A stretch of DNA of 14,009 bases, from the IMG/VR virus record IMGVR_UViG_2660237951_000011, positions 1 through 14,009 of that record, one strand, 5' to 3'. Below the pieces are notes generated by a model that saw only the letters and a list, made by a program, of their open reading frames with translations, did not search any database and had not been told where the DNA came from. A program made the translations under genes and the position numbers. This document shows positions 1 through 14,009 of the stretch, one piece after another. The stretch's first letter is position 1. Each line of letters starts with the position of its first letter. The DNA comes from a virus. Its lineage: Duplodnaviria; Heunggongvirae; Uroviricota; Caudoviricetes.

Positions 1-102
1 GCGCTCAGCTGAGCGCTTCACATCACCATGTTTGCTCTGCACCAGCCTGGCAATTTCACGGCTGGACATTGTCACAACACCCTTAGCGGTTAACTGATTC
101 AT
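1..102 (-). CDS. Rha-family phage regulatory protein / antirepressor, N-terminal fragment (gene continues past window start)
   Basis: Minus-strand ATG at 102..100 preceded by GGAG (7-nt spacing). Translation MNQLTAKGVVTMSSREIARLVQSKHGDVKRSAER matches the N-terminal pattern I recall for Rha/ORF6N-type proteins (T-x-SS-x-EIA..L....H..V.R). Only 34 codons visible. Confidence 0.45.
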   Translation of the reverse strand, partial: MNQLTAKGVVTMSSREIARLVQSKHGDVKRSAER

Positions 103-116
103 GCTATTTCTCCATA

Positions 117-2054
117 TCAGGCGGCTGCACCCGCCTTTTGATTTGCACATAATTCAGGAAGATTTGCTTCTACCAGCGCACGAGCGAACGGCGGCGGTAC
201 TGCGTTACCACAGCGCGCTACCTGCTTGTCTTTGGCGTAACGATTGCCGCGATAGTCCTGATCGATAACGTAGCCGTCAGGGAAGCCCTGCGCCTTATAA
301 AGCTCATGCGGTTGCAGCATGCGCATTCCGATATCGACGATCTGGTACTTAACCCCCTCGATCGTCACCAGCCATTCATCCTCGCTATCACCGCAGTAGG
401 TTTCGAGGAATGTCCGGACCTCGCCAACGTGCTGGCCACCAGCGGTAATCGTCGGCATAGGTGTATCCATGGTCTGACCGTCGCGGCAGGTTCCGCGCAG
501 CTTCACCAGGTGCGACGCAACTACCGCGTGGTGATCAACAGTAGTGACTGAGTGGGCAGGCTCATCCATACCAACACCCGGCCCCGTGTAATTCCCACCA
601 TAGTGCTTCGCCAGGAACGCGCTCACCGTTGCAAACTTATTACCACCAGCAGTGACCGTGCCGAGCGGGTTATTCAGTTGAAGAACACGCGGTTCTTGCC
701 CTGGGCGTTCGCCGTACCCCATCTGGATCAGTGTTGGAGTTACCAGCTGCGACTTACCGCCACCACCTGCAGTAATCGTCGCACTCGGTTCGTCAGCCCT
801 GTGCCCAACACTGGCTCCAAACTGGCGGGCGATGACCGGCGCAACCACGCACGCGCGGGACTGCTTGAGGATTGTATGAGCGGGTTTATCCAGCGGGCGC
901 GGCTTTGCCTGGTACTCACTGCCGCCATTGCCAGCCAGGAACGGTGTCAGGGCGGCCTCAACTACGCCAAGCGCATGCCCATTCCCGCCCGGGCGCGCCG
1001 ACGTACCAGCGGTGACAGTTGGTACCGGCTCGGTCACTGGCTGCCCGGTGGCCCCGGTGCGGAATTTAGTAAGATGCGGTACCGCCAGTGCGTAGCCATG
1101 CTTTTTAGTGATGGTCTGCAATGGCTCTAACAACGATTGCCCGCGGAAACAGTCATAACCTCCTTTCGTCGTGGTGTGGTTACACTTCACGATGAAAGGT
1201 GATGCGCTTTCGATAACAAAGCGCTGGATGCCGCGCGCGATACGTTTGAGCGTATTTTCCGCCAGCGGCTTTTTGCGGTCGAAGATGGACCGGGCCGGGA
1301 TATTCCAGTCAATGCACTCCGCCGCGGTACGCCATGGCGCCAGCTTGCCGCTTTGTACTTCCAGTGATTTTGGATCCCCATGAGTCGCTTCAGGCCAATG
1401 AATCTTGCGGCCGTCACAGCGCGTGACCATGAAGAAACGCTTTCTGATCGTCGGCGCGCCGTAGTCACATGCGCGCAGCTCCCGATAATCAACCTCATAA
1501 CCAAGCCCGGCGATCAGCTGTTGCGCCTGCTGGCCGTGCGGCTCAATGGCAAGGAATTCACAAACCTCAGCCAGCGCAGGGTGATTCGCCGCGATCCCCG
1601 TCGACAGCATGCCGACAAATGCCTCGAATGTTTCGCCAGCACGCTCAGGATCTGGGCGTAATTCTTCATCCAGCAGCGGGCCCCATGTCTTAAACTCTTC
1701 GACGTTCTCCAGCATCATGACGCGGGGACGTACTGCCAGCGCCCAGCGCAGGACAATCCACGCCAGCCCGCGAATCTCTTTCTTAACCGGCTTAGCGCCC
1801 TTCGCCTTGGAAAAGTGGCGGCAGTCAGGGCTAAACCAGGCCAGACCGACAGGTTTACCGCTGGTGGCTGCGCTTGGGTCAACGTCAAACACCGACTCGC
1901 AATAATGCAGCGTGTCAGGGTGATTCGTCTTATGCATCGCAATAGCGTTTTCGTCGTGGTTGATAGCGATATCCACGCTACGCCCGATCGCCAGTTCAAT
2001 GCCGGTACTCGCGCCGCCGCCACCAGCAAAGTTATCAACGATAATTTCACGCAT
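117..2054 (-). CDS. DNA (cytosine-5)-methyltransferase, 645 aa, with greatly expanded variable (target-recognition) region
   Basis: Start moved to internal ATG at 2054 (MREIIVDNF), which overlaps the upstream gene's stop. C5-MTase motifs read in order: I FAGGGGASTG; IV SPDCRHFSKAKG (P-C catalytic Cys); VI MMLENVEEF; VIII ACDYGAPTIRKRFFMV; IX MLQPHELYKAQGFPDGY; X GNAVPPPFARAL. About 370 aa lie between motifs VIII and IX. Confidence 0.85.
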   Translation of the reverse strand: MREIIVDNFAGGGGASTGIELAIGRSVDIAINHDENAIAMHKTNHPDTLHYCESVFDVDPSAATSGKPVGLAWFSPDCRHFSKAKGAKPVKKEIRGLAWIVLRWALAVRPRVMMLENVEEFKTWGPLLDEELRPDPERAGETFEAFVGMLSTGIAANHPALAEVCEFLAIEPHGQQAQQLIAGLGYEVDYRELRACDYGAPTIRKRFFMVTRCDGRKIHWPEATHGDPKSLEVQSGKLAPWRTAAECIDWNIPARSIFDRKKPLAENTLKRIARGIQRFVIESASPFIVKCNHTTTKGGYDCFRGQSLLEPLQTITKKHGYALAVPHLTKFRTGATGQPVTEPVPTVTAGTSARPGGNGHALGVVEAALTPFLAGNGGSEYQAKPRPLDKPAHTILKQSRACVVAPVIARQFGASVGHRADEPSATITAGGGGKSQLVTPTLIQMGYGERPGQEPRVLQLNNPLGTVTAGGNKFATVSAFLAKHYGGNYTGPGVGMDEPAHSVTTVDHHAVVASHLVKLRGTCRDGQTMDTPMPTITAGGQHVGEVRTFLETYCGDSEDEWLVTIEGVKYQIVDIGMRMLQPHELYKAQGFPDGYVIDQDYRGNRYAKDKQVARCGNAVPPPFARALVEANLPELCANQKAGAAA

Positions 2055-3381
2055 TGACGGCCCCCTGCATGCTGTTGAAGAGACCACCAGCGGTCGTGAT
2101 AATTTCACTCGTCGGCATACGTTCGAGCCACAGCTGGTTGATATTGGCTTTCAGCTTGTTCTGCTGCGAAACAGGTAGAGCGTCAGCCCCTTCAATCTGG
2201 TTAAACACCAGTCCAACCTCAAGAGGCCAAACGCGCGATTCGTTTAACGCCTTGTCCTTTGATTCCTGCGTCTCACGGACATGGGCGCGGATCCCCCGAA
2301 TATTTGACCATTTGGCTTTATCCAGGCTTTCCATGGTCGCGATGAATTCACTGTGGTTAATGCCGTATTCTTTCGCAGACTCAACGGCAACCGTGCGTAA
2401 CCGCTCTGACATGTCTTGTTTCACGTCATCGCTATCAAAGGGCAATGTTTCCAGCCATGCATTAACACCCACCAGGATGCTCTCGCTGATCAGCTTTTTC
2501 GCTCTGTCGATCGTCAGCGGTGAAACATTGGTAAATTCAGGGTTTTCCAGAGAGTCGGCAGCCCAGGTATGACCAAACTTTGACTCGCTGAAGGTGTACT
2601 CGTCTTTCTTGCCGAACGCCGCGACAACACAGGCCCAAGCCTCTACACCGCTGGTTTCCAGAATGGCTTTTTGGGTTAATGGCAGTTCTGCCTCTGATTT
2701 CTCCGGCACTACCTCAGCGTCCAGCTCCGGCGCCGCATCAGTTTGCGTTCTTCCCACGGCAAATTGGGCCAGCGACATCGCAGCACGGCCTTTGGCCTCC
2801 AGGTCGGTGCGGTTGATGTAACTGAAACGCTCACCCCGCCATGTTTTGTCGAAGACCACGATAGCGCCAGCAAAAAATGCGCTGGTGGGCTGCTGCTTTT
2901 CGTCTTTCGGCACGAACCATGTAGGAAGATCGAAACCAATTCGGCCACGGATGAATGTGACGTGATCTGCCTCTACCGGCCACCACGTTTCACTCGTCGC
3001 AGACTTAATGAGAAAAACGTACCGACCACCCTTTTCTCGCATGGCCATAGCGTGGTTAATGATGTGGGTCATTCCGGTAACGGCCTGCTTGTCGTGGTAC
3101 TGAGAGCGGCTGTAAGGCGGGTTGCCAAACCCGGCACCACCGAGTTCTGCCAGCCGCTCTGACCAATCCTGCATCAGGGCATTATCTTCAGCCGTGTACC
3201 ATGCTGGGCACTTCGCGTTGCTGTCGTCGGCAAAAAGGTCCAACACCAGAGGGCCGAACATCGCATTGATCCCCCAAAACAACAGATCCGGAGTGCGCCA
3301 TTGATCACCGACCTCTTTCAACTCGTGTGCTGGTTTTGAACGGAGTTCAGCTAGTGCACGGCAGTATTTATTTTCCATCAT
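2047..3381 (-). CDS. Phage Dam-family N6-adenine DNA methyltransferase with ~250-aa C-terminal extension of unknown function
   Basis: N-terminal region DQWRTPDLLFW...LDLFADDSNAKCPAWYT...GFGNPPYSRS carries the NPPY amino-methyltransferase motif in a phage-Dam-like context. Start ATG overlaps the upstream stop (ATGA at 3378-3381). Residues ~200-444 show no motif I recognise. Confidence 0.8.
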   Translation of the reverse strand: MMENKYCRALAELRSKPAHELKEVGDQWRTPDLLFWGINAMFGPLVLDLFADDSNAKCPAWYTAEDNALMQDWSERLAELGGAGFGNPPYSRSQYHDKQAVTGMTHIINHAMAMREKGGRYVFLIKSATSETWWPVEADHVTFIRGRIGFDLPTWFVPKDEKQQPTSAFFAGAIVVFDKTWRGERFSYINRTDLEAKGRAAMSLAQFAVGRTQTDAAPELDAEVVPEKSEAELPLTQKAILETSGVEAWACVVAAFGKKDEYTFSESKFGHTWAADSLENPEFTNVSPLTIDRAKKLISESILVGVNAWLETLPFDSDDVKQDMSERLRTVAVESAKEYGINHSEFIATMESLDKAKWSNIRGIRAHVRETQESKDKALNESRVWPLEVGLVFNQIEGADALPVSQQNKLKANINQLWLERMPTSEIITTAGGLFNSMQGAVNA

Positions 3382-4232
3382 CCTCTGAACCCCTCTGGAA
3401 TCTTGCTATCAACCGGACCGAACTTCATCGGGTCATGTTTCTTTTCACCCCAGCTGTCACGCGGTGGCCGCCCCTTCTTGTCCCAGCGGATCCCGCTTTG
3501 CAGATAACCTTCAAATTTTTTCGGACCGAAGAGCGTTTCAGGACGCATGTACTGGTACTGCACGTCATTGCCGTTCCAGTGCTCATGCTTAAGGTCGATC
3601 ACCAGCTGTAAGTCGCTAACGGTGTAACCTTCACGCAGACGAGCACGGATGTTTTCCAGAGAAGTTTTTGATTTTTGGTATCGTGAGCCACTAACCAGGT
3701 TCAGATGATTCAGAACCAGGATGGCGTTATCGGTGATCATCACTTCAGGGTCTGGTTGCGGCGCAACCGGACAAGAAGGTTTTTTAACTGATGGATCAGT
3801 AGTTGTATTTACTGACGGATCCCCCCCAGATTCTGACGGGTGAAAACCGCCTTTTTCATCGTTTTTTGATGCCTCAGATTTTGACGCGTCGGTTTTTGAG
3901 GCATCAGATTTTGATGCGTCAGAATCTGACAGGTGAGAAAAGGCAGCAGCCTGCAATTTAGCAACATTGAGCTGGTAAACGTTCGATGCATTTCGGTTGC
4001 CTTTACGGCGCTGCTGGCGGGTTAACCAACCATCTTTTTCCAGCTGAGATATGGCTGTACGAACCGTGCTCTCACCAGCACCAATCTGGCGCGCGATGGT
4101 AGCGATGGAAGGCCAGCTAACCCCTTCATCACTGCTGAAGTCTGCCAGACGCGCCATGATGGCAACGCTGGATAGCTTCATGCCAGAAGCGGCACAAGCA
4201 TCCCAAACGTAACCCGTTAATTTAGTGCTCAT
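3378..4232 (-). CDS. Phage replication initiator (lambda O-like): N-terminal winged-HTH, low-complexity SDASK-repeat linker, conserved phage replication C-terminal domain
   Basis: 284-aa ORF with RBS AAGGA 5 nt upstream of the ATG at 4232. N-terminus (SVAIMARLADFSSDEGVSWPSIATIARQIGAGESTVRTAISQLEKDGWL) is HTH-like. Central linker DSDASKSDASKTDASKSEASKND is encoded by tandem 15-bp DNA repeats. C-terminal region resembles phage replication-protein C-terminal domains. The family assignment is from memory, not a search. Confidence 0.65.
   Translation of the reverse strand: MSTKLTGYVWDACAASGMKLSSVAIMARLADFSSDEGVSWPSIATIARQIGAGESTVRTAISQLEKDGWLTRQQRRKGNRNASNVYQLNVAKLQAAAFSHLSDSDASKSDASKTDASKSEASKNDEKGGFHPSESGGDPSVNTTTDPSVKKPSCPVAPQPDPEVMITDNAILVLNHLNLVSGSRYQKSKTSLENIRARLREGYTVSDLQLVIDLKHEHWNGNDVQYQYMRPETLFGPKKFEGYLQSGIRWDKKGRPPRDSWGEKKHDPMKFGPVDSKIPEGFRG
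3864..3938. repeat. Four to five tandem 15-bp repeats (consensus TTTTGAnGCnTCAGA) inside the O-like gene; candidate origin iterons
   Basis: Direct reading gives ttttgatgcctcaga / ttttgacgcgtcggt / ttttgaggcatcaga / ttttgatgcgtcaga / atctgacaggtgaga. Each has a near-palindromic 10-bp core TGAnGCnTCA. Position mirrors lambda ori, which sits in the O linker. Confidence 0.5.
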
Positions 4233-4401
4233 GGTCGTCCTTTAACTCTGTAAACTTGCGCTTGAATTGTTCGAGCGGGCTGAAACATTCGTGGTCATAT
4301 CCATCCCGCAGGTAGATAACTCGTTGAGTCTCTGGCTCCCACCTGATAACCCGAACGGGGATCCCTCTGTGGTCTTTGAACCTTCGGTTAACTTCGCGCA
4401 T
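4222..4401 (-). CDS. Hypothetical small protein (59 aa), below the ORF-track length cutoff
   Basis: Minus-strand ATG at 4401 with AGGAAGG about 10 nt upstream; stop overlaps the O-like start by 11 nt. Translation MREVNRRFKDHRGIPVRVIRWEPETQRVIYLRDGYDHECFSPLEQFKRKFTELKDDHEH is protein-like in composition. Several rare Arg codons and competition with an overlapping 126-aa frame lower confidence. Confidence 0.3.
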   Translation of the reverse strand: MREVNRRFKDHRGIPVRVIRWEPETQRVIYLRDGYDHECFSPLEQFKRKFTELKDDHEH

Positions 4402-4573
4402 AAGCGTTTCGCCTTCCTGTAGTAAACCCCCACAATTGCGACCGCCCGACTGTGGTTACATGGCACCCAGCGGTTTGCTATTCTGCGTTCATACCGAAAC
4501 AACGGAGCGCCCGGTACCGGGATCATCCTGAGTTGCGGCAAACGGTTAAAAGCCGTTAAACTGGTCATGCGGA

Positions 4574-5122
4574 TTACTTCTCCATACAAGATTTGTCTGC
4601 CACGACGCCCGGAGCTGCACACTCGCGGGCGTCACCTTTTTCCGGCGCACAAAACACACGGAAAAGCAGCGTCAAATGTTCCTGCCACTTAGCCATCACC
4701 TGATAGCTGTTCTCTTCAATCTGGGCGCGTTCCTGAGCATCAATAACGCCGTCAGCGGTAGCTTTGCGAACGTATTGCGAATGCCTGCCGATCCACTCCA
4801 CTGACTCCATAAGACGCTGGTTGATGTCACCGTTCTCTATTTCTTCAACGTCAGCCAATGGCACGAAAACACCGTTCGAGTGACGTGCAATAGCGTTCGC
4901 TATGTGGTTTGAACCACCAGCACGTTGAAGCACCATCGCCCAACCGAGCGGGAAGATCTGATCGCCATCGGTACGCAGCCGGTTAAACAGCGCGTTCTCG
5001 GTCACACCCAACCACTCAGCAGCTTCTGAATATCCGCCAGGCAGCTCGGTGATCGTTTTTTTGATTGCGGCCACCAGCCAGGCTGGCTGCTTATCTACTT
5101 TCCATTCAGGTTCTATACCCAC
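4574..5122 (-). CDS. Putative CII-like early regulatory protein, 182 aa, GTG start
   Basis: ORF-track start (GTG at 5206) would overlap cro by 62 nt. An in-frame GTG at 5122 sits 8 nt after a strong AAGGGAGG placed right after the cro stop, so I take 5122 as the start. Sits at the cII position (after cro, before replication genes). Contains an HTH-like stretch (GGYSEAAEWLGVTENALFNRL). Family call is tentative. Confidence 0.5.
   Translation of the reverse strand: MGIEPEWKVDKQPAWLVAAIKKTITELPGGYSEAAEWLGVTENALFNRLRTDGDQIFPLGWAMVLQRAGGSNHIANAIARHSNGVFVPLADVEEIENGDINQRLMESVEWIGRHSQYVRKATADGVIDAQERAQIEENSYQVMAKWQEHLTLLFRVFCAPEKGDARECAAPGVVADKSCMEK
4604..4641 (+). terminator. Intrinsic terminator on + strand, antisense to the 3' end of the CII-like gene (OOP-like arrangement)
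   Basis: 8-bp stem 4604-4611 / 4626-4633 with 7 G:C pairs, 14-nt loop, then ACC and TTTTT (4637-4641). Confidence 0.5.
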
Positions 5123-5144
5123 GGCTAGGTCCTCCCTTCTGTGG

Positions 5145-5360
5145 TTATTTCTGATCGCTTGGCGATGTATTCTTGCCATAACGTTCTGGGTTAAATTCCA
5201 GTTCACCAGCAGTTCGATACGCAGCTTCAGCAGCTCGTCCTTTTGGGATTAAGCGTCCGGGGCGGTTACGCCACTGGTAAACGGCCTCACTGGTGATGCC
5301 AAAAAATTCGGCAACTTTTTCAGTGCTGCCGAAATGTTGTTCAATCTCGTCGGTTGTCAT
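5145..5360 (-). CDS. cro: Cro-like HTH repressor (71 aa)
   Basis: Small basic HTH protein (FGSTEKVAEFFGITSEAVYQWRN) transcribed divergently from the CI repressor gene. AGGAGG lies 4 nt upstream of the ATG. A sigma70-like promoter TTGACC-17-TAATAT is on the minus strand at 5416..5388. Confidence 0.7.
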   Translation of the reverse strand: MTTDEIEQHFGSTEKVAEFFGITSEAVYQWRNRPGRLIPKGRAAEAAYRTAGELEFNPERYGKNTSPSDQK

Positions 5361-5373
5361 GAAGCCTCCTTAG

Positions 5374-5437
5374 CTAAGTTTGGTTAGATATTAATAACCA
5401 ATCTAACTTTGGTCAATAAAAACTAAGATTACTTAGT
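5374..5437. promoter_or_regulatory. OR-like operator/promoter region between cro and cI
   Basis: Three related boxes: CTAAGTTTGGTTAG (5374-5387), CTAACTTTGGTCAA (5403-5416) and perfect palindrome ACTAAGATTACTTAGT (5422-5437). The first two overlap the start site and -35 of the cro promoter. Confidence 0.6.
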
Positions 5438-5459
5438 CTTTTTTAAACTTGGTGCTTTC

Positions 5460-6086
5460 ATGGAAACGGTTGGTCAGCGCATTAAAGCCCTACGTAGGGT
5501 TACAAGAACCTCTCAAAAAGAACTGGGTAAGTTCTGCGGGGTTAGTGACGTAGCGGTGGGTTATTGGGAAAAGGATGTGAATATCCCAAACGGTGAATCG
5601 CTGGTTAAGCTGGCGAAATTCTTTAACACATCAATAGATTACATTCTTTACGGCACTGAATTTGAAGGCACCCTCATAACTAAAATGAGGCGTGTCCCGG
5701 TGATTTCATGGGTTCAAGCTGGGCAGTTCACGGAATGTAAAGCCGCTGATTTGTTCAGTGATGTCGATAAATGGGTTGAAACATCACTTCGCATTGGGGA
5801 TAACTCGTTCGCTTTAGAGGTCAAAGGGGATTCAATGACCAATCCAAATGGCCTCCCAACAATCCCTGAAGGGGCAACCGTTATTGTTGATCCAGATGCC
5901 GAACCCCTTCATGGCAAGATTGTGGTTGCGCGTCTTGATGGCACTAATGAAGCGACTGTTAAAAAACTTGTCATTGATGGCCCACAAAAATTTTTAGTGC
6001 CACTAAATCCTCGCTACCCCAACATCCCGATCAATGGTAACTGCCTCATTATTGGCGTTGTTAAAGGCGTTCAGTACGAACTCTAA
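5460..6086 (+). CDS. cI: CI-type prophage repressor, N-terminal HTH plus C-terminal S24 (LexA-like) autocleaving peptidase domain
   Basis: N-terminal HTH (TSQKELGKFCGVSDVAVGYWE). Ala-Gly cleavage site in VQAGQF. Ser nucleophile in GDSM and the Lys of the dyad in ATVKKL. Divergent from cro across an operator region. Confidence 0.9.
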   Translation: METVGQRIKALRRVTRTSQKELGKFCGVSDVAVGYWEKDVNIPNGESLVKLAKFFNTSIDYILYGTEFEGTLITKMRRVPVISWVQAGQFTECKAADLFSDVDKWVETSLRIGDNSFALEVKGDSMTNPNGLPTIPEGATVIVDPDAEPLHGKIVVARLDGTNEATVKKLVIDGPQKFLVPLNPRYPNIPINGNCLIIGVVKGVQYEL

Positions 6087-6104
6087 TCCCTTCCCACTCT
6101 TCCT

Positions 6105-6169
6105 CTAAGCATCAAGCTAAGTTTAGTTTGATGTTTTCACTTGACCAGAAAACTAAGTTAAGTTAGATT
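6105..6169 (+). promoter_or_regulatory. OL/pL-like promoter and operators downstream of cI
   Basis: TTGACC (6141-6146), 17-bp spacer, TAGATT (6164-6169). The spacer and -10 overlap the near-palindrome ACTAAGTTAAGTTAGAT. Further CTAAG boxes at 6105-6109 and 6117-6130 belong to the same half-site family as the OR boxes. Confidence 0.5.
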
Positions 6170-6528
6170 TTTTTCTGTCGGCACCAAACCACCGCGCCTG
6201 ATGTGGTTAAAAGCAGGCCAAAGCAATAAGACGTGTTCCCTGTTCTGGCTGCTCACTTTCCCCTTGAGGGTGACAGCCAGCTTTTTAAGGGCACAACAGG
6301 CGAGAGCATTGCTGATTATCGGACTGCGTGAGACGCGACGCGGTAAAGCAGGTAAACAGTGCTCTCACCGTTGTGGTAATGCGGCTCTGCGCACGTGACG
6401 AGGCCAACAAGTTTTTATTTCAACTTTTGAAATGAATACGTTTCTTGTGGTGTAGCGTCGCCGGTTCTGGCCGGTCCGGCAGGTGGAGGCACCACCGCCA
6501 CAACAACATCATTGCTGTGTGTAGTCTT

Positions 6529-6557
6529 TGCCCATCACATCGGTGGGCACCTTTTTT
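6529..6557 (+). terminator. Intrinsic terminator-like hairpin inside the leader upstream of the first accessory gene
   Basis: 8-bp stem TGCCCATC / GGTGGGCA (one G:U pair), 5-nt loop, then CC and TTTTTT (6552-6557). Confidence 0.45.
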
Positions 6558-6713
6558 ACACAAGAGACAAGGGCATCACCGGGCGACGGGCTCATTCCCC
6601 AATCCACCCGGGCAAGAGGATAGCGATTGCAGTCGCCGACAAATGCAGGTGCCCTTCTCTGTTGTGTATGGAGAAAGTTCGGCGGTGGCAGCCGCCATAA
6701 CGAGGGTAAAACC

Positions 6714-7085
6714 ATGAGTAATGACCGCATGACCGTAGTGCCCGACTTTTTGGGCGAGCTGGATGCCGGTGTGTTCATGAACAAAATCGCGGCAGCACTT
6801 AACACCACCGCGCTTGGCGTTCTGAACAACGGCAACAAAGGCAAAGTAGTCCTCACCTTTGATTTTGAGCGTATGGGTAATTCCGTTGAAGAGAAGCGCG
6901 TCAAGATCAAGCACAAGCTGAACTACAGCACCCCAACTCCGCGCGGTAAAGCCTCCGAAGAGGACACAACCGAAACCCCTATGTGGGTTAACAAAGGCGG
7001 GAAGCTAACCATCCTCCAGGAGGATCAGGGGCAACTGTTCGGGATCACCGGCGCGGTGGACGGAAAGCTTAAAGCGGCTCAGTGA
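6714..7085 (+). CDS. Hypothetical protein (123 aa), first gene of the accessory operon; YfdP-like by position
   Basis: ATG at 6714 with GAGGG 7 nt upstream. The ORF-track start at 6627 has no RBS. Typical codon usage. YfdP assignment is by gene order only, not sequence recall. Confidence 0.6.
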   Translation: MSNDRMTVVPDFLGELDAGVFMNKIAAALNTTALGVLNNGNKGKVVLTFDFERMGNSVEEKRVKIKHKLNYSTPTPRGKASEEDTTETPMWVNKGGKLTILQEDQGQLFGITGAVDGKLKAAQ

Positions 7086-7141
7086 TCCGCAACAACAAAC
7101 TCACTGATACCACTTTGATCATCAGTTAATAAGGAATTTTT

Positions 7142-7969
7142 ATGTCTCAGTTAGACAGCGGCACCTTCAAGCAGGTCAAAGACCTGGTCCTTTCCGGTTA
7201 TCACCTGAATGATATTCATGGCCTGGCTTGCCCGACCGCATTACTGCCAGAGGGTACTGGCGTTGAAAGCCTTGAGCGCTTTTCTCTGGAACGTTTCCGC
7301 TTTCGTGGCGCAATGACCACAACCAGTATTGACGACTTCGCACGTTATTCTAAAGGTTATGCCAGCGCCAGCGAGCCAGCTCGTTGCTTCATTGACGCTG
7401 ACAACATGACCGCCCGTTCAGTGTTCAACATCGGCACCCTGGATAACCCCGGTCACGCCGATAACGTTGCTTCAATCACTCTGAAGAAAACCGCCCCGTT
7501 TCGCGCGCTACTACAGATCGATGGTCAGCGTCTGAAACAAAAGCAAATCGCTGAATGGCTGGAAGACTGGAGTGATTACCTGCTGGCGTTTGACGCTGAT
7601 GGTAAGACGATGGAGATTTCTCAGGCGGCTCAGGCCGTGCGTCGTATCACTATCCAACAAGCAACCCAGCAGGATCATGAAACTGGTGATTTCGCTGGTA
7701 AAAAATCACTCATGCAAAGCGTCGAAGCAAGCAGCAAAGACGTAATGCCGGTAGCGTTCGAATTCAAATGTGTGCCGTATGAAGGTCTGGGCGAACGCCG
7801 CTTTAGCTTGCGTAACAGCCTGCTGACCAGCGATGAACCCTGCTTTGTTCTGCGCATCGTCCAACTTGAAGCCCAGGAAGAAGCAATCGCCAACGAATTC
7901 CGCGATTTACTGATCAGCAAGTTCGACGGTGAATCAGTGGAAACTTTCATCGGTAACTTTAAAGCCTAA
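7142..7969 (+). CDS. Hypothetical protein (275 aa); YfdQ/DUF2303-like by position
   Basis: AGGA 7 nt upstream of ATG. No recognisable catalytic motif. Lies immediately upstream of the YfdR-like gene, as in the yfdP-yfdQ-yfdR order I recall for the CPS-53/KplE1 prophage of E. coli K-12. Confidence 0.6.
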   Translation: MSQLDSGTFKQVKDLVLSGYHLNDIHGLACPTALLPEGTGVESLERFSLERFRFRGAMTTTSIDDFARYSKGYASASEPARCFIDADNMTARSVFNIGTLDNPGHADNVASITLKKTAPFRALLQIDGQRLKQKQIAEWLEDWSDYLLAFDADGKTMEISQAAQAVRRITIQQATQQDHETGDFAGKKSLMQSVEASSKDVMPVAFEFKCVPYEGLGERRFSLRNSLLTSDEPCFVLRIVQLEAQEEAIANEFRDLLISKFDGESVETFIGNFKA

Positions 7970-7981
7970 TTGCTCTGCATT

Positions 7982-8008
7982 AAATCCCCGGCGCCGCGGG
8001 GATTTATT
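7982..8008 (+). terminator. Hairpin / possible terminator or attenuator after the YfdQ-like gene
   Basis: Inverted repeat AAATCCCCG-gcgccg-CGGGGATTT (9-bp stem), followed by ATT. Located 13 nt after the stop codon. Confidence 0.4.
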
Positions 8009-8097
8009 GAAGCGTAATTCCATTAATTATCGCCATCCGGCGAGGGATTCGTGCAACCAAAATCTGCGCGGTGCAGCGCGCCAATATGGAGAAAACC

Positions 8098-8637
8098 ATG
8101 AGCTACATTCAGACATTATCCGGCAAACACTTTAATTACCTCGATATCCAACAGGACGATATCGTCATCGAGGATATTGCTACTGCGCTGTCTCATATCT
8201 GCCGTTTTGCTGGGCATCTTCCTGAGTTTTACAGCGTCGGCCAGCATAGCGTTTTAACCAGCCATCTCGTTCCGCAGGAGTTTGCCTTAGAAGCACTGCT
8301 TCATGATGCCGCCGAAGCCTACCTGCAAGATATTCCCTCACCGCTTAAGCGCCTGTTACCGGATTACCAGGTGATCGAAGCTCGCGTAGACGCTGCTATT
8401 CGCCAGAAATTTGGCCTACCGACGGAGCAACACCCAACAGTGAAATATGCCGATCTGGTGATGCTCGCCAGCGAACGCCGCGATTTTGAGATTGACGAAG
8501 GTTCCGTGTGGCCATGCCTCGATGGCGTTGTCCCGACGGACCTATTCATCATCAATCCAGTTCGTCCAGGCCAGTCATACGGCATGTTCATAAATCGCTT
8601 TAATGAGTTGATGGAGCAGCGTCAATGCGCCGCATGA
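8098..8637 (+). CDS. yfdR: HD-domain phosphohydrolase, YfdR-like 5'-deoxynucleotidase
   Basis: HD motif visible: H-x(n)-HD in LSHICRFAGH...YSVGQHSVLTS...EALLHDAAEAYLQDIP. Strong end-to-end resemblance to my recollection of E. coli YfdR. Start at 8098 (GGAG 6 nt upstream), not the track start at 8071. Confidence 0.7.
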   Translation: MSYIQTLSGKHFNYLDIQQDDIVIEDIATALSHICRFAGHLPEFYSVGQHSVLTSHLVPQEFALEALLHDAAEAYLQDIPSPLKRLLPDYQVIEARVDAAIRQKFGLPTEQHPTVKYADLVMLASERRDFEIDEGSVWPCLDGVVPTDLFIINPVRPGQSYGMFINRFNELMEQRQCAA

Positions 8638-8801
8638 AGGTAAAAGAACTCGTGGCGGAGGCGTTTGCCTCCGTGGCTGAATTGCCACCAAAGCATGCAT
8701 CGCTTATGCGCGAAGTCGCTACCAGGCTTGAAGCTACGTTCGCAGCATTAACCGAATCATTGGCGCAACTGGAACAGGAACGTAAAGGTAAAACGCAATG
8801 A
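8634..8801 (+). CDS. Hypothetical small protein (55 aa), below ORF-track cutoff
   Basis: ATG overlaps the yfdR-like stop (ATGA at 8634-8637) and its own stop overlaps the next start (ATGA at 8798-8801). Translation MKVKELVAEAFASVAELPPKHASLMREVATRLEATFAALTESLAQLEQERKGKTQ is helical-looking. Confidence 0.45.
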   Translation: MKVKELVAEAFASVAELPPKHASLMREVATRLEATFAALTESLAQLEQERKGKTQ

Positions 8802-9052
8802 CCGTATTTGAATATCTCCAGGGCCACCCGAACGCCACCAGCGGTGAAATCGCAAGGGCGATGGGTAAAAAGACGCCAGCCGTAGCCAGCGCACTATCTC
8901 AGCTTTATGCAACAGGGAGAATTGTTAAGTCTGGCGCACGCGGTGGGATACCGACATACCGCGTCAATGATCTGCCGTTTGGATGCAGCAATAACTTAAC
9001 GCTGATATTTAACCAGCTTCTGCGAAACGTCCGCAAAGGAGCAGCCCAATGA
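8798..9052 (+). CDS. Hypothetical small protein, possible winged-helix DNA-binding fold (84 aa)
   Basis: Translationally coupled on both sides. The stretch SGEIARAMGKKTPAVASALSQLYATGRIV looks HTH-like. Confidence 0.55.
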   Translation: MTVFEYLQGHPNATSGEIARAMGKKTPAVASALSQLYATGRIVKSGARGGIPTYRVNDLPFGCSNNLTLIFNQLLRNVRKGAAQ

Positions 9053-9366
9053 GCAAATTTACGGCATTACCAGTAGAACGCGACCAATACGGCTACTGGA
9101 CTCACCCCGTCTATGAGCAATTTTGCGATGGTCGTGAATTTATCTCACCTGATGAGTTCAACGCCTGGCTGGATAAAAACGGCCTCGAATGGACGGTAGT
9201 TTACCGGGATGAAGAAGACATCGATCCTGAAGTTGATGGTTACGATATTTCAGCCTGGCAGCCAGAATCGCCAGCCGGTGAAGGTTGGTTTGTCGGTTCA
9301 ATTCACAACACCGAAGATGGCGCGGTATGCATCTGGTTACGTAACGTTGAAGGCGGTGCAGCATGA
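9049..9366 (+). CDS. Hypothetical protein (105 aa)
   Basis: ATGA overlaps at both ends. Acidic, Trp-rich. No family recognised. Confidence 0.6.
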   Translation: MSKFTALPVERDQYGYWTHPVYEQFCDGREFISPDEFNAWLDKNGLEWTVVYRDEEDIDPEVDGYDISAWQPESPAGEGWFVGSIHNTEDGAVCIWLRNVEGGAA

Positions 9367-10121
9367 CAGTCCATACACTGAAGCAATGCCGCCCGGACCA
9401 AGAAGAAACCGAGTATTTCTGGAAGTTGTTTCATGCGGCACAACGGAATGACGCTCGCTGGCACGGTAGTGAAATCAGCATTATCGCCGATGAACTATCC
9501 CGGACGGATTTAGATCGTAATCAAAAACTGTTTCTTCTCCGTGCCTGGCAAGTGCTGGTAGACGACAAAGGTGGATTCGGGCGCTTGATGGGTGCCTTTG
9601 ATACTTACGTCTACAACATGCAGGACCCTGATGATGACTGCGTAGCCTGGAAGCCTGAACTGGCTAAGCTGCTACAGGATGGCAATCTGTTTGATGTTGT
9701 GCTGACGGCATATCAGGAGGCCTGCCATGAGGGGATCGTTAATTGGGAGGCAGCGGTATCTCTTTCTGAGGAAAACGTAGAACTGAAGCGCAAACTCTAC
9801 GCAGCAGAGAATCAAATAGCAGAACTGGAGGCGCGGACGTTCAATCCTGCAATTCTAGATGTGATAGCAGAGCGCCAGCGGCAGAAAGCCGTTGAGGGCT
9901 GGACGTCTGAGCATGACGACAAATACGGAAAATCGCAGTTGTTGTGGGCATCCTCATGCTACGTCCTGAACACCATCCAGCCGTTTAACCGCATTCCGAT
10001 GGACTGGCCGTGGGCACCCGAATGGTGGAAGCCGACAGGCCCGCGCCGTGACCTGGTGAAAGCTGGCGCGCTTATTCTGGCTGAAATTGAACGCATAGAC
10101 CGCCAGGAGGCAGCACAATGA
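9363..10121 (+). CDS. Hypothetical protein with central coiled-coil (252 aa); possibly Ea22-related
   Basis: ATGA coupling at both ends. Coiled-coil segment EENVELKRKLYAAENQIAELEAR. Trp-rich C-terminus. Confidence 0.6.
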   Translation: MTVHTLKQCRPDQEETEYFWKLFHAAQRNDARWHGSEISIIADELSRTDLDRNQKLFLLRAWQVLVDDKGGFGRLMGAFDTYVYNMQDPDDDCVAWKPELAKLLQDGNLFDVVLTAYQEACHEGIVNWEAAVSLSEENVELKRKLYAAENQIAELEARTFNPAILDVIAERQRQKAVEGWTSEHDDKYGKSQLLWASSCYVLNTIQPFNRIPMDWPWAPEWWKPTGPRRDLVKAGALILAEIERIDRQEAAQ

Positions 10122-10771
10122 GCAACATCAACAAACAGGCGCTGCGTGAAACGGCGGATGCAGCAAACAAAGCCTCGTGGGGCCGTTGGGAATCATATCA
10201 TCCACACAAAGGCGCGCGGGGCCACGAGGTCAAGGTAGGGGTAAAAGCAATCGCCCAGCACTGCCTCAAGGTTGATGCAGAATTCATCGCCGCATCCAAC
10301 CCCGCCACTGTGCTGGCGCTGCTGGATGAGCTGGAAACTAAAGACAAGCGTAATGCGGAGCTGGAAGACCTTCTTGAAGCTGAAATTAAGTCATGGATGC
10401 AACGGTACGATAGTGCAAATAACCGAAGAGAAGCCGCAGAGAAGCGCAACGCAAAATTACAAAGCGAGAATGCATACATCCGCAACCGGTTCAAAGAACT
10501 GGACCTATTAATCGGGAAAAACATTCTGGTCATGCAGGCTGCGATTATCGAATGGCAGGCAACTGGCGACGCTAAGAGCGGACTGGCATGGATTTATAAC
10601 ACACTGTTTGGCCCAGGCGAATTGCCGGACGAATCTGAGAAAGATGCTCAGGCCTACTTTGACCGCAAATATGCACCGATTGACGAAGAGCTTATGGCGC
10701 TTCACAAGTGGTTTTGGGAACAAAGTGAAGCCGAACGTGCCGCCGCTGGCATTGGCGTGAAGGGGGAGTGA
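10118..10771 (+). CDS. Ead/Ea22-like protein (217 aa)
   Basis: N-terminus MSNINKQALRE... and the ATVLALLDELE segment match my recollection of lambda Ea22 (MSEINSQALRE..., ...VLELLDERE). Central coiled-coil. AGGAGG RBS. Assignment from memory, not a search. Confidence 0.6.
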   Translation: MSNINKQALRETADAANKASWGRWESYHPHKGARGHEVKVGVKAIAQHCLKVDAEFIAASNPATVLALLDELETKDKRNAELEDLLEAEIKSWMQRYDSANNRREAAEKRNAKLQSENAYIRNRFKELDLLIGKNILVMQAAIIEWQATGDAKSGLAWIYNTLFGPGELPDESEKDAQAYFDRKYAPIDEELMALHKWFWEQSEAERAAAGIGVKGE

Positions 10772-10772
10772 G

Positions 10773-11045
10773 ATGAAAAAATACCTCAGTAATTTAGCGA
10801 GCATGTTGCAGGGTATTGCAGGTGTAATTTCAGACGGCGAACGAGTGCAAACTGAGTGTCCTCCGCATTTAAAATCTGCGCTACTTGAGGCGTCTCATGC
10901 GCTGGATGGTCAATCAGTCAGGGTTAATTACCCACCAAATGGGAAACCGGAAATCGTAAATGCTCGCGGCAAGCATCGGCAGTTAACTTTCCGGGAACGG
11001 ATTGCTATTCGCCTTCTCGGCGGCAGAACGGAGATTAGGCCATGA
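10773..11045 (+). CDS. Hypothetical protein (90 aa)
   Basis: GGGGGAG RBS 4 nt upstream. Stop overlaps the next start (ATGA at 11042-11045). Confidence 0.55.
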   Translation: MKKYLSNLASMLQGIAGVISDGERVQTECPPHLKSALLEASHALDGQSVRVNYPPNGKPEIVNARGKHRQLTFRERIAIRLLGGRTEIRP

Positions 11046-11578
11046 CAACTAACCACCCGGCGCACGGTCCTGTATCAATAGATCGCCTGCACCAGATACG
11101 CGAAGTACTCAGCAAAGCAGCAGCACAAAGCGACGGCGGTAATCTCGGCTACGCAATGGCTGATGCTGTCAAGGTGATTGATAAGGCTATTGCTGCGTTT
11201 AATGCGGAGCTTTATGTTCCTACCGTTCAGTGCTGGTCATGCAGAGAGGTTATTGAAGTTTCCGCAGTAGGTGACTGTGATGGTTATTGCCCGAAATGCG
11301 ACTCGCCAATTGATCTCGATGAAGAGCCATACGATGCCGCCATACTTCAGGCTGGCAACTCTCCGGTGATTCCGGATGGTTGGAAACTGGTACCGATTGT
11401 GCCGACGGAGAAGATGGTTATCGAAGGCTTCGAGTCGGAGCCAGACGAATTCTTCAGTAAATCTGAAGTGTGGGAGGCGTATCAGAAAATGAGTGGCTGC
11501 GAACAAGCGGCGCATCGGGCCAAGTTATGCTGGGCAGCGATGATCTCAGCAGCACCACAACAGGAGGTGAAGCTGTGA
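11042..11578 (+). CDS. Hypothetical zinc-ribbon protein (178 aa)
   Basis: Two CxxC pairs, CWSCREV...CPKCDSP, spaced like a zinc ribbon. Translationally coupled on both sides. Confidence 0.6.
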   Translation: MTTNHPAHGPVSIDRLHQIREVLSKAAAQSDGGNLGYAMADAVKVIDKAIAAFNAELYVPTVQCWSCREVIEVSAVGDCDGYCPKCDSPIDLDEEPYDAAILQAGNSPVIPDGWKLVPIVPTEKMVIEGFESEPDEFFSKSEVWEAYQKMSGCEQAAHRAKLCWAAMISAAPQQEVKL

Positions 11579-11814
11579 CTAAATCAGAATTCCTCCAGAA
11601 GGTAGCGGTGCTGGCCGGTGAATGCCATAAGTTGGCCTGTGAGCTGGACATAGGCGATGAACGAATAGAGATGTTCGAGATTTATGAAGTGCTTCGCCGA
11701 ATCCAGCGGAGTGGTGCAGCCGGTGAAATGCTGGCTGCAACAAACCCTTTACTATCCCCTGGAATACCTGAGGACACTGAATGGGTAAATTTCCATAAAG
11801 AGGATCATGCCTGA
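11575..11814 (+). CDS. Hypothetical protein (79 aa), GTG start
   Basis: GTG at 11575 overlaps the upstream stop (GTGA) and is preceded by AGGAGG at 7-nt spacing. The ORF-track start at 11470 lies inside the upstream gene and has no RBS. Confidence 0.5.
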   Translation: MTKSEFLQKVAVLAGECHKLACELDIGDERIEMFEIYEVLRRIQRSGAAGEMLAATNPLLSPGIPEDTEWVNFHKEDHA

Positions 11815-11990
11815 TGCCTAAGACAATCATCATAACCTTAGAAATTGATGTTCCGGAACACGCTACCGATAGCGACATATCAGATTGGGTAGACGTCGAG
11901 TACGGGCAGTGTGGTGGACAAAAATTAGATAACCCCTGCCGTGGCGATGCCACCGAAGTAATAAACCATTCATGGAAATTTGAGAGCTAA
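11814..11990 (+). CDS. Hypothetical small protein (58 aa), below ORF-track cutoff
   Basis: ATG overlaps the upstream stop (TGATG). Translation MPKTIIITLEIDVPEHATDSDISDWVDVEYGQCGGQKLDNPCRGDATEVINHSWKFES. Fills an otherwise unexplained 180-bp gap in a tightly packed operon. Confidence 0.45.
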   Translation: MPKTIIITLEIDVPEHATDSDISDWVDVEYGQCGGQKLDNPCRGDATEVINHSWKFES

Positions 11991-11992
11991 AG

Positions 11993-12565
11993 ATGAACGA
12001 CTTAATGATTGACCTCGAATCAATGGGGAAAAAGCCAAACGCGCCGATCGTCTCAGTTGGTGCTGTCTTTTTTAACCCTCAAACAGGTGAACTTGGCCAA
12101 GAATTCTATACAGCCGTCTCGCTTGAAAGCTCAATGGATCAAGGCGCGGTACCGGATGGAGATACGATTCTTTGGTGGCTAAAACAAAGCCCTGAAGCGC
12201 GCTCAGCTATCTGCGTTGATGATGCGATGCCTATCACTGATGCACTGTCGGAACTTAGCCATTTCATTCACCGGCATGCATATAATCTCAAATACATGAA
12301 GGTCTGGGGTAACGGGGCCACCTTTGACAATGTGATTTTGCGCGGAGCTTACGAACGCGCCGGACGCATTTGCCCGTGGGAATTTTGGAACGATCATGAT
12401 GTACGAACGATTGTTACCCTCGGTCGCAGTGTTGGTTTCGATCCGAAGCGTGACATGCCTTTCATTGGCGATGTTCACAACGCCCTGGCTGATGCGCGCC
12501 ATCAGGCAAAATATGTGTCAGCAATTTGGCAGAAAATTATCCCTGCCACCAGCACCAACGAGTAA
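11993..12565 (+). CDS. DnaQ-like (DEDDh) 3'-5' exonuclease
   Basis: N-terminal MIDLESMG (Asp-x-Glu) and C-terminal HNALADARH (His/Asp) match the acidic-residue pattern of DEDDh exonucleases. Lies directly before xis-int. Confidence 0.7.
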   Translation: MNDLMIDLESMGKKPNAPIVSVGAVFFNPQTGELGQEFYTAVSLESSMDQGAVPDGDTILWWLKQSPEARSAICVDDAMPITDALSELSHFIHRHAYNLKYMKVWGNGATFDNVILRGAYERAGRICPWEFWNDHDVRTIVTLGRSVGFDPKRDMPFIGDVHNALADARHQAKYVSAIWQKIIPATSTNE

Positions 12566-12609
12566 ACCACACAGCCCGGGTGCAGCCGGGCTTTATGGAG
12601 AAGGAAACC

Positions 12610-12819
12610 ATGGCAAAGCTAATGAAAGCGAGTCTCTGGAGTAAACGCGAATTTACCAAAGACTCCATTCCTGACAACCGTACAATAAAACGTTGGGTCG
12701 AAAACGGATTACTCATGGGAAGGATTGTAGATGGTTCAGTTTTTGTCTATGAAACCGAAAAGTGGGGAGTTGACTCAATTGTTAATCAGGCGGTACGTCA
12801 GTTAATAATTGAGGGTTGA
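12610..12819 (+). CDS. xis: Excisionase-like recombination directionality factor (69 aa)
   Basis: Start moved to ATG at 12610 (GGAGAAGGAAA RBS). Pattern W-x(n)-P-x(n)-RWVENGLL...G...V.E parallels lambda Xis. Stop lies 2 nt before the integrase ATG. Confidence 0.6.
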   Translation: MAKLMKASLWSKREFTKDSIPDNRTIKRWVENGLLMGRIVDGSVFVYETEKWGVDSIVNQAVRQLIIEG

Positions 12820-12821
12820 CC

Positions 12822-14009
12822 ATGGCAGCAAGGCCACGAAAAAAAGAATACCGCCACCTTCCTGATTATCTTTTTTTTGATAAAGATCGTGGCGTGTATA
12901 AGTTCACGCTTATAACTGGGAAAAAGAAAACTCTAGGTTCGGATCGAGTAATGGCTATCGCCATCGCCCGAGAATATAACCTGAGGATGCGCCCTGAAAA
13001 TACACCATCGATAGATTCATTAATTCGGGAATCGGGAGGGCTGAATGGTGAAGCCCACCCGTTTTCTGAACATGTTGATCGCATTATGGAGAGAGCTATC
13101 AAAGATGAGCAACCGTCTAAAAGCACACTTGACGATTGGAATAATGATGCCATCAGGGTTAAAGAATTTTTTAATAACATACCCGCATGCGACATTGAGC
13201 TTGAGCACGTAAATGCCTACATACGAAATTACCATTCTGAATCGTCGGCCAATGTTCAGAACCGAAAAGTTAGCTTCCTGAAAAAGCTATTCTCTTATGC
13301 TGTTGATGAATCGCTAATGATGGATAACCCTGCAACACGGAAAAAAATGCGGCGTGTCGATAAAAAGGTCCGCCGGCGACTTACTTTGGAGCAGTTCCTG
13401 GCCATACATGCAGCTGCTGAACCCTGGCTGAAGACAGCAATGGACCTTGCATTACAAACTACTCAAGCACGCCTGGAAGTATCCCGGATCCGGTACTCGA
13501 TCAAGGAACCTCAAGAAGGAGTTTGCGGCTGTGTATGGTTCGATCAGGAAGAGGCTGGCATATTCGGAACGCTTTACATTCATCGGCAAAAAGTGCAACA
13601 CAAAGAGGCCTCTCACGTTGCAATTCCGATCGGCAGGGCCCTGAAAGAGATCATCGACAATAGCAGAGACAATGTGGCCAGTCCTTATGTTGTTCACCGG
13701 CTTTTGGAAAAGAGAAGCAATCCGATAAGCAAGGAAGTTAACCACCCAACACAGGTGGCCCCTGATTATTTGAGCAGAGCATTTTCAGAGCTGCGGGACC
13801 GGATAGGTATAGCGGCAGAATTACCTATCAAAGAAAGGCCAACTTTCCACGAGATTAGAGCGCTGGCGGCTCATATTTTCGAAAGACAAGGTATCGATCC
13901 GCAGGCAAGGATGGCCCATAGTGATGCAAAATCGACAAAAATTTATACCCAGAACCATGTTGAATGGGTAGAAGTTCCTCATGCTGAAATTGTCTTTAAA
14001 GCCGGGTGA
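12822..14009 (+). CDS. int: Lambda-family tyrosine integrase
   Basis: Alignable by eye to lambda Int: N-terminal arm-binding region (RKKEYRHLPDYLFFDKDRGVYKF vs lambda RRDLPPNLYIRNNGYYCY), and catalytic-region R...H-x-x-R...Y (HEIRALAAH, KIYTQNH). ATG at 12822 with GAGGG RBS; the track uses TTG at 12816. Stop is the last codon of the window. Confidence 0.9.
   Translation: MAARPRKKEYRHLPDYLFFDKDRGVYKFTLITGKKKTLGSDRVMAIAIAREYNLRMRPENTPSIDSLIRESGGLNGEAHPFSEHVDRIMERAIKDEQPSKSTLDDWNNDAIRVKEFFNNIPACDIELEHVNAYIRNYHSESSANVQNRKVSFLKKLFSYAVDESLMMDNPATRKKMRRVDKKVRRRLTLEQFLAIHAAAEPWLKTAMDLALQTTQARLEVSRIRYSIKEPQEGVCGCVWFDQEEAGIFGTLYIHRQKVQHKEASHVAIPIGRALKEIIDNSRDNVASPYVVHRLLEKRSNPISKEVNHPTQVAPDYLSRAFSELRDRIGIAAELPIKERPTFHEIRALAAHIFERQGIDPQARMAHSDAKSTKIYTQNHVEWVEVPHAEIVFKAG

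Follow-up and report, generated by a model that had tools for sequence, protein, structure and literature searches.

Here we analyze the yfdP–yfdQ gene pair in a 14,009-nucleotide (nt) stretch of a lambdoid prophage of Escherichia coli (IMG/VR record IMGVR_UViG_2660237951_000011, positions 1 to 14,009; the whole stretch is called the window below). We show that yfdP and yfdQ form an obligate pair, because yfdP always lies directly upstream of yfdQ and sometimes overlaps it, and that the pair is an exchangeable cassette, which can be replaced by rdgC or be missing from its slot upstream of a yfdR-like gene. What such a cassette may do for the phage is treated more tentatively in the last section. 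The three genes on which the analysis turns are:

6714-7085, plus strand: yfdP-like gene, 123 amino acids, PF27127 'YfdP', phrog_204, with a GAGGG ribosome-binding site 8 nt upstream
7142-7969, plus strand: yfdQ-like gene, 275 amino acids, DUF2303/PF10065, phrog_210, with an AAGGAA ribosome-binding site
8098-8637, plus strand: yfdR-like gene, HD-domain deoxynucleoside 5'-monophosphate phosphatase, phrog_318 (E=3e-96)

Pairing of yfdP and yfdQ and the exchangeable slot

Both open reading frames (ORFs) that the first-pass annotation had read as two genes were confirmed, and both belong to large conserved families. They are separated by 56 nt in the window. YfdP matches phrog_204 with E=1e-41 and YfdQ matches phrog_210 with E=1e-103, and the PF10065 hidden Markov model (HMM) covers residues 31-273 of the 275 in YfdQ at 221.2 bits (cut-off 26.6; E=1.9e-65). 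The PF27127 assignment, which carries the Pfam name 'YfdP', is precomputed on database proteins that are 100% identical across all 123 YfdP residues. Compared with the E. coli K-12 proteins, the identity is 59% for YfdP (E=2e-49), 57% for YfdQ and 63% for YfdR. Three minus-strand ORFs in this part of the window (6509-6916, 6576-6914 and 7675-7950) were considered as genes and rejected, because the plus-strand frames that they overlap encode deeply conserved protein families.

The pairing is strict. In every locus that has upstream DNA (about 100), yfdP is found directly upstream of yfdQ on the same strand, which agrees with the earlier suggestion that the two genes work as a unit. Among 80 IMG/VR loci with a YfdQ that is 79-98% identical, yfdP is directly upstream in 78 of the 78 with upstream DNA. 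The same pairing is seen in five distant phages (Vibrio VvAW1 and D93, Xanthomonas Tenjo, Pseudomonas KT1 and an Stx2a phage), in which YfdP is 32-61% and YfdQ 33-58% identical to the window proteins, and in 14 further loci including K-12, where the gaps range from -1 to 81 nt. Three contigs among these 14 encode a very divergent YfdP, and in them the two genes abut or share bases between stop and start codon. A tblastn search of 50,697 phage records yields 180 records for YfdP and 180 for YfdQ, and the hosts break down almost identically. When 1.84 billion representative proteins were searched with a profile, 460 clusters of the YfdP family were found, nearly all of them stand-alone proteins of 110-125 amino acids.

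The yfdR-like gene, which is constant in enterobacterial relatives and adjacent in all 80 IMG/VR loci, is not beside the pair in VvAW1, Tenjo and D93, and it is therefore not part of the core pair. In other phages the neighbours of the pair are RecT and YqaJ, Erf with YqaJ and a single-stranded DNA-binding protein (SSB), a DEDD exonuclease, VRR-NUC, or YfdR. For example, the pair lies directly 3' of RecT (PF03837) and a YqaJ nuclease in Shigella phage Ss-VASD, and in Xanthomonas phage Tenjo it precedes genes for Erf (PF04404), YqaJ and SSB. Phages that are large or seem not to be temperate carry it as well, among them Vibrio D93 (79 kb) and members of the Xanthomonas Tenjo group. The pair is an ancient and widely distributed phage module.

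The prophage of E. coli CX21 shows what else can stand in the same place. It has the same flanks and a YfdR-like protein of identical accession, and its slot (7628-8665) holds a single rdgC gene (PF04381, E=2e-115). Homology between CX21 and the window stops at 6676 and restarts at 8066 with 99.9% identity. We surveyed the slot in 79 IMG/VR loci that were picked solely for a close YfdR homologue: 55 loci have yfdP and yfdQ there, 19 have rdgC and 4 are empty, and both occupants are never found together. The description of these genes as a cassette is borne out by this exchange between otherwise near-identical prophages. The breakpoints of the slot coincide with two hairpins that have an NUGCAG loop, at 6681-6696 and at 8066-8081. 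As far as our searches tell, three things are new here: the strictness and breadth of the YfdP–YfdQ pairing, the yfdPQ/rdgC/empty polymorphism at a defined slot, and the start-associated NUGCAG hairpins at its junctions. Already known are both gene families, which are annotated and have near-identical copies in public databases, and the yfdP/yfdQ/yfbR trio has been discussed in print.

Hairpins, leader and expression of the cassette

The junction hairpins are members of a recurrent family, with copies in the window and in phage LLS:

6681-6696, plus strand: left-junction hairpin ggcgg-UGGCAG-ccgcc, 17 nt before the yfdP ATG (motif scans, covariation)
8066-8081, plus strand: right-junction hairpin gcgcg-GUGCAG-cgcgc, 17 nt before the yfdR-like ATG (motif scans, covariation)
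12573-12592, plus strand: NUGCAG hairpin before a xis-like ORF (motif scan)
119-136, minus strand: NUGCAG hairpin before an ant-like gene that leaves the window (motif scan)
Phage LLS 31748-31763, minus strand; 28739-28756, minus strand; 36021-36038, plus strand: copies of the motif, which LLS has before yfdP, xis and ant (motif scan)

The motif consists of a stem of 5-8 base pairs (bp) with the loop [G/U][G/U]GCAG, followed after 3-8 nt by (A)UGGAGAA and the start codon. About 0.5 such hairpins per strand would be expected by chance in the window. Instances were then picked blind to pairing, by the loop hexamer together with TGGAGA within 30 nt. A stem of at least 5 bp was present in 70% of such instances, as compared to 3.4% for the hexamer elsewhere. 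Among 77 distinct instances, changes on both sides were found at all seven stem pairs, and the covariation score was 0.457 against 0.172±0.018 in shuffles (0 of 500 reached the observed value) and 0.04-0.18 in slid controls. The hairpin family has 22 distinct inner stems. The first-pass annotation had named a leader hairpin before yfdP and another before the next gene. The former (6681-6696) is thermodynamically ordinary when taken alone (z=-0.57) but is a copy of the covarying motif; the latter is the copy at 8066-8081 and stands as described. The loop sequence GTGCAG is also the site of the restriction enzyme BsgI.

A likeness can be drawn to the start-associated sequences (SAS/ESAS) of Cluster K mycobacteriophages, which are short conserved elements with several copies per genome immediately before the translation starts of a subset of genes (PMC3203893). 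The NUGCAG hairpins differ from them in sequence, in host phylum and in being covarying hairpins with a fixed hexaloop, and the resemblance is one of analogy only.

The spacer between yfdQ and the yfdR-like gene contains two more hairpins:

7981-8006, plus strand: post-yfdQ hairpin of 10 bp (7981-7990 pairing with 7997-8006) with loop GCGCCG and an outer stem at 7968-8019
8030-8043, plus strand: second small hairpin TCGCC-AUCC-GGCGA, whose stem is conserved and whose loop is variable in relatives and in K-12

The first of these had been described as a terminator. The hairpin itself is real and conserved: it folds with -23.9 kcal/mol (z=-2.9; 1 of 200 shuffles folds as well), and nearly all relatives have a hairpin in the corresponding place, the 63 distinct spacers showing at least 6 different stems. 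In distant phages the place is taken by unrelated hairpins, which include classic terminators such as the GC stem followed by UUUUGUU in VvAW1. The consensus terminator scan did not call the hairpin at 7981-8006, because its U-tract (UUUAUU) is weak and partly paired. It is probably a terminator-like or 3'-stabilising structure, and the word terminator may suit it.

The signals upstream of the cassette are as follows:

6141-6169, plus strand: pL-like sigma-70 promoter candidate TTGACC-17-TAGATT, 9/12 consensus positions, within operator-like inverted repeats at 6107-6168
6421-6559, plus strand: leader element with an RprA-like 3' half and a strong intrinsic terminator (stem 6529-6549 plus T-run)

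The promoter candidate lies just 3' of the cI-like repressor gene, is the sole promoter-like site upstream of the cassette and may function as pL, judging by its sequence and position. The cassette had been placed directly after a pL leader; the promoter is a consensus match beside operator-like repeats, and a strong terminator (6529-6559; z=-4.7, 0 of 200 shuffles) intervenes before yfdP, far stronger than the hairpin after yfdQ. A consensus scan of the plus strand from 6560 to 6713 found no sigma-70-like promoter, although weak or non-sigma-70 sites could escape such a scan. The cassette thus appears to have no promoter of its own. The terminator upstream, together with the lack of a promoter-like site after it, suggests that the pair is expressed by read-through from pL early in lytic growth, and the pair is likely silent in the lysogen.

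The leader has some features of its own. The segment 6421-6558 aligns to the full length of the Rfam RprA model RF00034 with 41.5 bits (gathering score 70; E=7e-4 to 4e-3), and at the gathering score Rfam returns no RNA family in the window. Within the conserved 3' domain, 26 consecutive nt agree fully with the RprA consensus (AUUGCUGUGUGUAGUCUUUGCCC core), and the terminator resembles that of RprA; the 5' half has diverged and carries a 42-nt insertion. This element is common to LLS and a few relatives and is present in just 7 of 5,426 E. coli genomes, and it may represent a small-RNA mimic carried by phages. Further, 86 nt of the leader (6419-6504) align with 85% identity to positions 313-398, at the start of the genome of Klebsiella phage SopranoGao (61.6 kb), which otherwise has no match to the 6400-8200 query. 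Another candidate between the repressor and the leader, the 65-codon plus-strand ORF 6201-6398, was tried as an N-like or zinc-finger hairpin regulator and rejected, as its low-complexity, hydrophobic and basic peptide has a non-genic look; it is probably not a gene. The homologous region in phage LLS is an unannotated 630-nt gap, and relatives with another immunity region have in that place a gene for a 122-amino acid ClpX-type zinc-finger protein, which is missing in the window.

The two proteins and the prophage that carries them

The predicted YfdP structure shows a long helix (residues 9-39) followed by a three-stranded antiparallel sheet (44-92) and a flexible tail. The YfdQ model, which was built from an alignment of 41 sequences (predicted local distance difference test, pLDDT, 78), has an N-terminal helix, a linker and an alpha/beta body. 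The linker is conserved yet modelled with low confidence, and it includes RxRFRG at residues 51-56; other invariant motifs of YfdQ are PGHAD and EDW. YfdQ is acidic, with an isoelectric point of 4.9-5.7 (5.0 for the window protein), and YfdP is near neutral. Neither protein has a predicted membrane segment, the maximum 19-residue hydropathy of YfdP being 1.2. A comparison of YfdP with YfdQ by hhalign gave a probability of 0.13%, and the idea that YfdP is a duplicated YfdQ domain was rejected.

The first-pass annotation had proposed profile and structure searches of both proteins. The former placed YfdP in phrog_204 and YfdQ in PF10065 and phrog_210, and the latter gave no informative fold match. 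The sole PDB sequence match of YfdQ is 9O7M, entitled 'YfdQ Protein' (E=1.5e-39), which contains 36 chains of one sequence. This sequence is closest to a Xanthomonas/Xylella phage protein: it is ~95% identical to YfdQ of Xanthomonas phage Tenjo (4839-5660), and it is not the E. coli YfdQ. What can be drawn from 9O7M is that YfdQ assembles, or was modelled as assembling, into a large complex of many copies. For YfdP the PDB sequence search found no match even with a 104-sequence profile; a match to AcrB with E about 0.01 was judged spurious. In the literature we found no paper on the 9O7M structure or on the function of DUF2303, PF10065, PF27127, phrog_204 or phrog_210.

The prophage is of a lambdoid type that is inserted beside yejO in E. 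coli, and the best complete matches to the window are E. coli chromosomes with 98-99% identity. The cI-like repressor gene (5460-6086, plus strand) encodes HTH_3 and Peptidase_S24 domains. The early-left operon begins 3' of it on the plus strand and ends with a DnaQ-like 3'-5' exonuclease (11993-12565), the small xis-like ORF and the integrase (12816 onwards). The early-right genes on the minus strand encode cro-like and cII/YmfL-like proteins, a replication protein and two DNA methyltransferases. The methyltransferase genes are large and stand back to back (117-2108 and 2047-3381, both on the minus strand), one of them cytosine-specific and the other N6-adenine. The prophage is apparently intact and still has its repressor, leader and integrase.

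Chi octamers (GCTGGTGG) are strongly enriched in the window. There are 10, compared to 0.6 expected, an excess of ~17-fold that 0 of 200 shuffles reach, and 8 of the 10 are on the minus strand. By octamer scan their positions are:

436, 643, 2020, 2084, 4914, 5071, 8835 and 12546, minus strand: Chi sites
1860 and 2881, plus strand: Chi sites

Searches with Pfam and PHROGs agree with the earlier remark that the early-left operon has no bet, erf or recT homologue. The window fits a published class. In a comparison of 325 lambdoid genomes (2025), phages of the LLS, ST64B and phiNP type were described as having no Rec module, accumulating Chi sites and depending on host RecBCD (PMC12315714). In this type (ST64B sb37-sb36-sb35, LLS gp39-gp38-gp37 and phiNP) the pair is likewise the first to follow 3' of the repressor, the Rec module is missing and Chi sites are many. 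The interval 6400-8200, leader included, has 81-83% DNA identity with phages LLS, Eeyore, Flotzy, phiNP and ST64B. The differences from the window are only allelic, except that the immunity region is unlike that of the relatives that carry the ClpX-type zinc-finger gene.

The chromosome of K-12 offers another comparison. Its cryptic prophage CPS-53 has yfdP-yfdQ-yfdR(-yfdS-yfdT) in the same order and orientation as in the window, and the spacer after yfdQ likewise contains a hairpin, a small hairpin and a GUGCAG element before yfdR. However, the stem of the K-12 GUGCAG element is partly decayed and CPS-53 is a cryptic prophage that has no repressor.

A possible function in host replication and recombination

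One possible option, which we prefer but propose tentatively, is that yfdPQ serves as an accessory module of the early lytic phase, in which oligomeric YfdQ is partnered by YfdP and which targets either DNA or the replication or recombination proteins of the host. We favour it because the neighbours of the pair consistently belong to replication and recombination, because the alternative occupant of the slot is RdgC, because of the K-12 phenotypes described below, and because a strong terminator lies upstream of the pair and no later promoter was found. The cassette belongs to the early-left operon of an LLS/ST64B-type, Chi-rich lambdoid prophage without a Rec module, begins at the NUGCAG-loop hairpin with the ribosome-binding site and ends with the conserved hairpin. 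Its transcription would start at the pL-like promoter in the early lytic phase and read through the 6529-6559 terminator. YfdQ would then assemble into a high-order homo-oligomer with YfdP as its partner, and the module, along with the adjacent YfdR-like protein, which would bind DnaA, would modulate the replication or recombination of host DNA, with DnaA and RecA as focal points. In this role yfdPQ would correspond functionally to RdgC, which binds DNA and modulates RecA.

Several published data are consistent with such a role. In K-12, multicopy yfdQ and yfdR with either yfdS or yfdT inhibit initiation at oriC, yfdQ is required for this and YfdR binds domain I of DnaA (PMC4776307). Deletion mutants of yfdQ are cited as weakly sensitive to methyl methanesulfonate (MMS) and to H2O2 (PMC4776307). 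It was also reported that overproducing YfdQ causes a co-resident prophage to form plaques (bioRxiv 10.1101/413146). The likeness to RdgC (PF04381), which is structurally RexA-like (PMC12315714), is that it fills the same hairpin-delimited slot and excludes yfdPQ from it; it differs in being one gene and not two. A functional equivalence of yfdPQ and RdgC may follow from this exchange.

Some of our results and some of the published ones weigh against this proposal. That the same slot implies the same function is only a heuristic, and homology between YfdQ and RdgC is not detectable (hhalign probability 0.15%), nor does Pfam give an RdgC (PF04381) match for YfdP or YfdQ. The K-12 inhibitory set is incomplete in the window, which has the yfdQ-like and yfdR-like genes and in which tblastn finds no homologue of yfdS or yfdT. 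In K-12 yfdP is dispensable for the multicopy phenotype, and pull-downs gave no tight binding of YfdQ to YfdR or DnaA, the authors themselves conceding a possible overexpression artefact (PMC4776307). As the Vibrio and Xanthomonas phages lack YfdR beside the pair, YfdR cannot be a partner that the pair requires. The quality of the YfdQ model is no more than moderate (pLDDT 78) and its alignment shallow, and a comparison of the YfdQ and YfdP models with PDB fold libraries (up to 8 April 2026, 9O7M not being among the entries) returned nothing informative. The activities suggested for both proteins are drawn from their context.

Another hypothesis, which we consider rather unlikely, is that the pair is a superinfection-exclusion, abortive-infection or anti-defence module that senses or blocks some event of infection as lambda RexAB does, or that neutralises a host defence. 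Exclusion and anti-defence were among the functions first suggested for the cassette. It would suit a swappable accessory cassette near the immunity region whose alternative is the RexA-like RdgC, the sizes of ~275 and ~120 amino acids resemble those of RexA and RexB, and the pair is widespread in unrelated temperate and apparently lytic phages. However, the PADLOC defence models give zero matches in the window, YfdP has no membrane-spanning segment, unlike RexB, and the strong terminator upstream, together with the lack of an own promoter, argues against expression in the lysogen. The consistent presence of replication or recombination genes as neighbours also speaks against exclusion.

Improbable in our view is that the cassette is a classical moron, which would be expressed autonomously from the prophage and give the lysogen a fitness trait such as tolerance of oxidative or alkylation stress. 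The moron concept of lambdoid phages is reportedly due to Juhala, Hendrix and colleagues. Like a moron, yfdPQ is extra DNA that is present or absent between otherwise adjoining sequences and has a conserved 3' hairpin, and in CPS-53 the deletion of yfdQ was reported to raise the sensitivity to H2O2 and MMS. The presence or absence of the cassette and its 3' hairpin uphold part of the earlier idea of a moron-like unit with signals of its own; as to the other part, the consensus scan of 6560-6713 found no sigma-70-like site. Moreover, the pair also occurs in the apparently non-temperate or large phages (D93 and the Tenjo group), as an ancient widespread module and not as a sporadic gene of benefit to the host, and the stress phenotypes stem from a prophage that is cryptic and repressor-less.

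The earlier suggestion that YfdQ could be a single-strand annealing protein, standing in with YfdP for the missing bet, erf or recT, fared worst. It is true that the early-left operon has no known annealing-protein gene, that YfdQ in 9O7M is a many-subunit assembly such as annealing proteins form, that the pair is often beside recombination genes and that K-12 yfdQ mutants are reported as weakly MMS-sensitive; with Redβ/RecT, Erf, Sak, Sak4 and gp2.5 YfdQ shares the early-left location, the multi-subunit state and the proximity to nucleases and SSB. Yet none of the annealing-protein families in Pfam, PHROGs and NCBIfam matches YfdQ, hhalign of YfdQ against the Ss-VASD RecT gives a probability of 0.04%, the annealing-protein core fold was not found in the YfdQ model, and no sequence or fold similarity is seen to the Rad52/Redβ/RecT/Erf, Sak4 or gp2.5 classes. 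The pair co-occurs with these proteins instead of replacing them, in one operon with a genuine RecT in Ss-VASD and with Erf in Tenjo, and the yfdP/yfdQ/yfbR trio is found in a phage with a complete Rec module (ArgO145), and its members were judged unlikely recombinases (PMC12315714). In addition, the slot is empty or filled by rdgC in the same type of phage, and the Chi-rich window is what is expected of phages that use host RecBCD and RecA (PMC12315714). YfdQ is thus very unlikely to be a single-strand annealing protein, and we give a cryptic recombinase hardly any credence.

Going beyond the accessory module that we prefer, one may speculate, with little confidence, that the pair represents a novel kind of phage machine that needs both proteins: a large YfdQ oligomer that YfdP loads or caps and whose fold resembles none of the structures released before April 2026. 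Such a machine might, like RdgC or RexA-like proteins, control the lysis-lysogeny decision or transactions that depend on RecA or DnaA. The NUGCAG hairpins, found ahead of the pair and of several other early genes, might then be an undescribed RNA element, read by a factor, that regulates early cassettes and marks the junctions of exchange.

The two families concerned, phrog_204 and phrog_210, are among the largest phage protein families without a known function. YfdP and YfdQ occur in Shiga-toxin phages, in Salmonella ST64B, on the K-12 chromosome and in Vibrio, Pseudomonas and Xanthomonas phages. The strict pairing, the alternation with rdgC and the finding that the pair is very unlikely to be the missing recombinase narrow the search for their role. 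The family of start-associated hairpins and the RprA-like leader may matter for the regulation and the shuffling of early phage operons.

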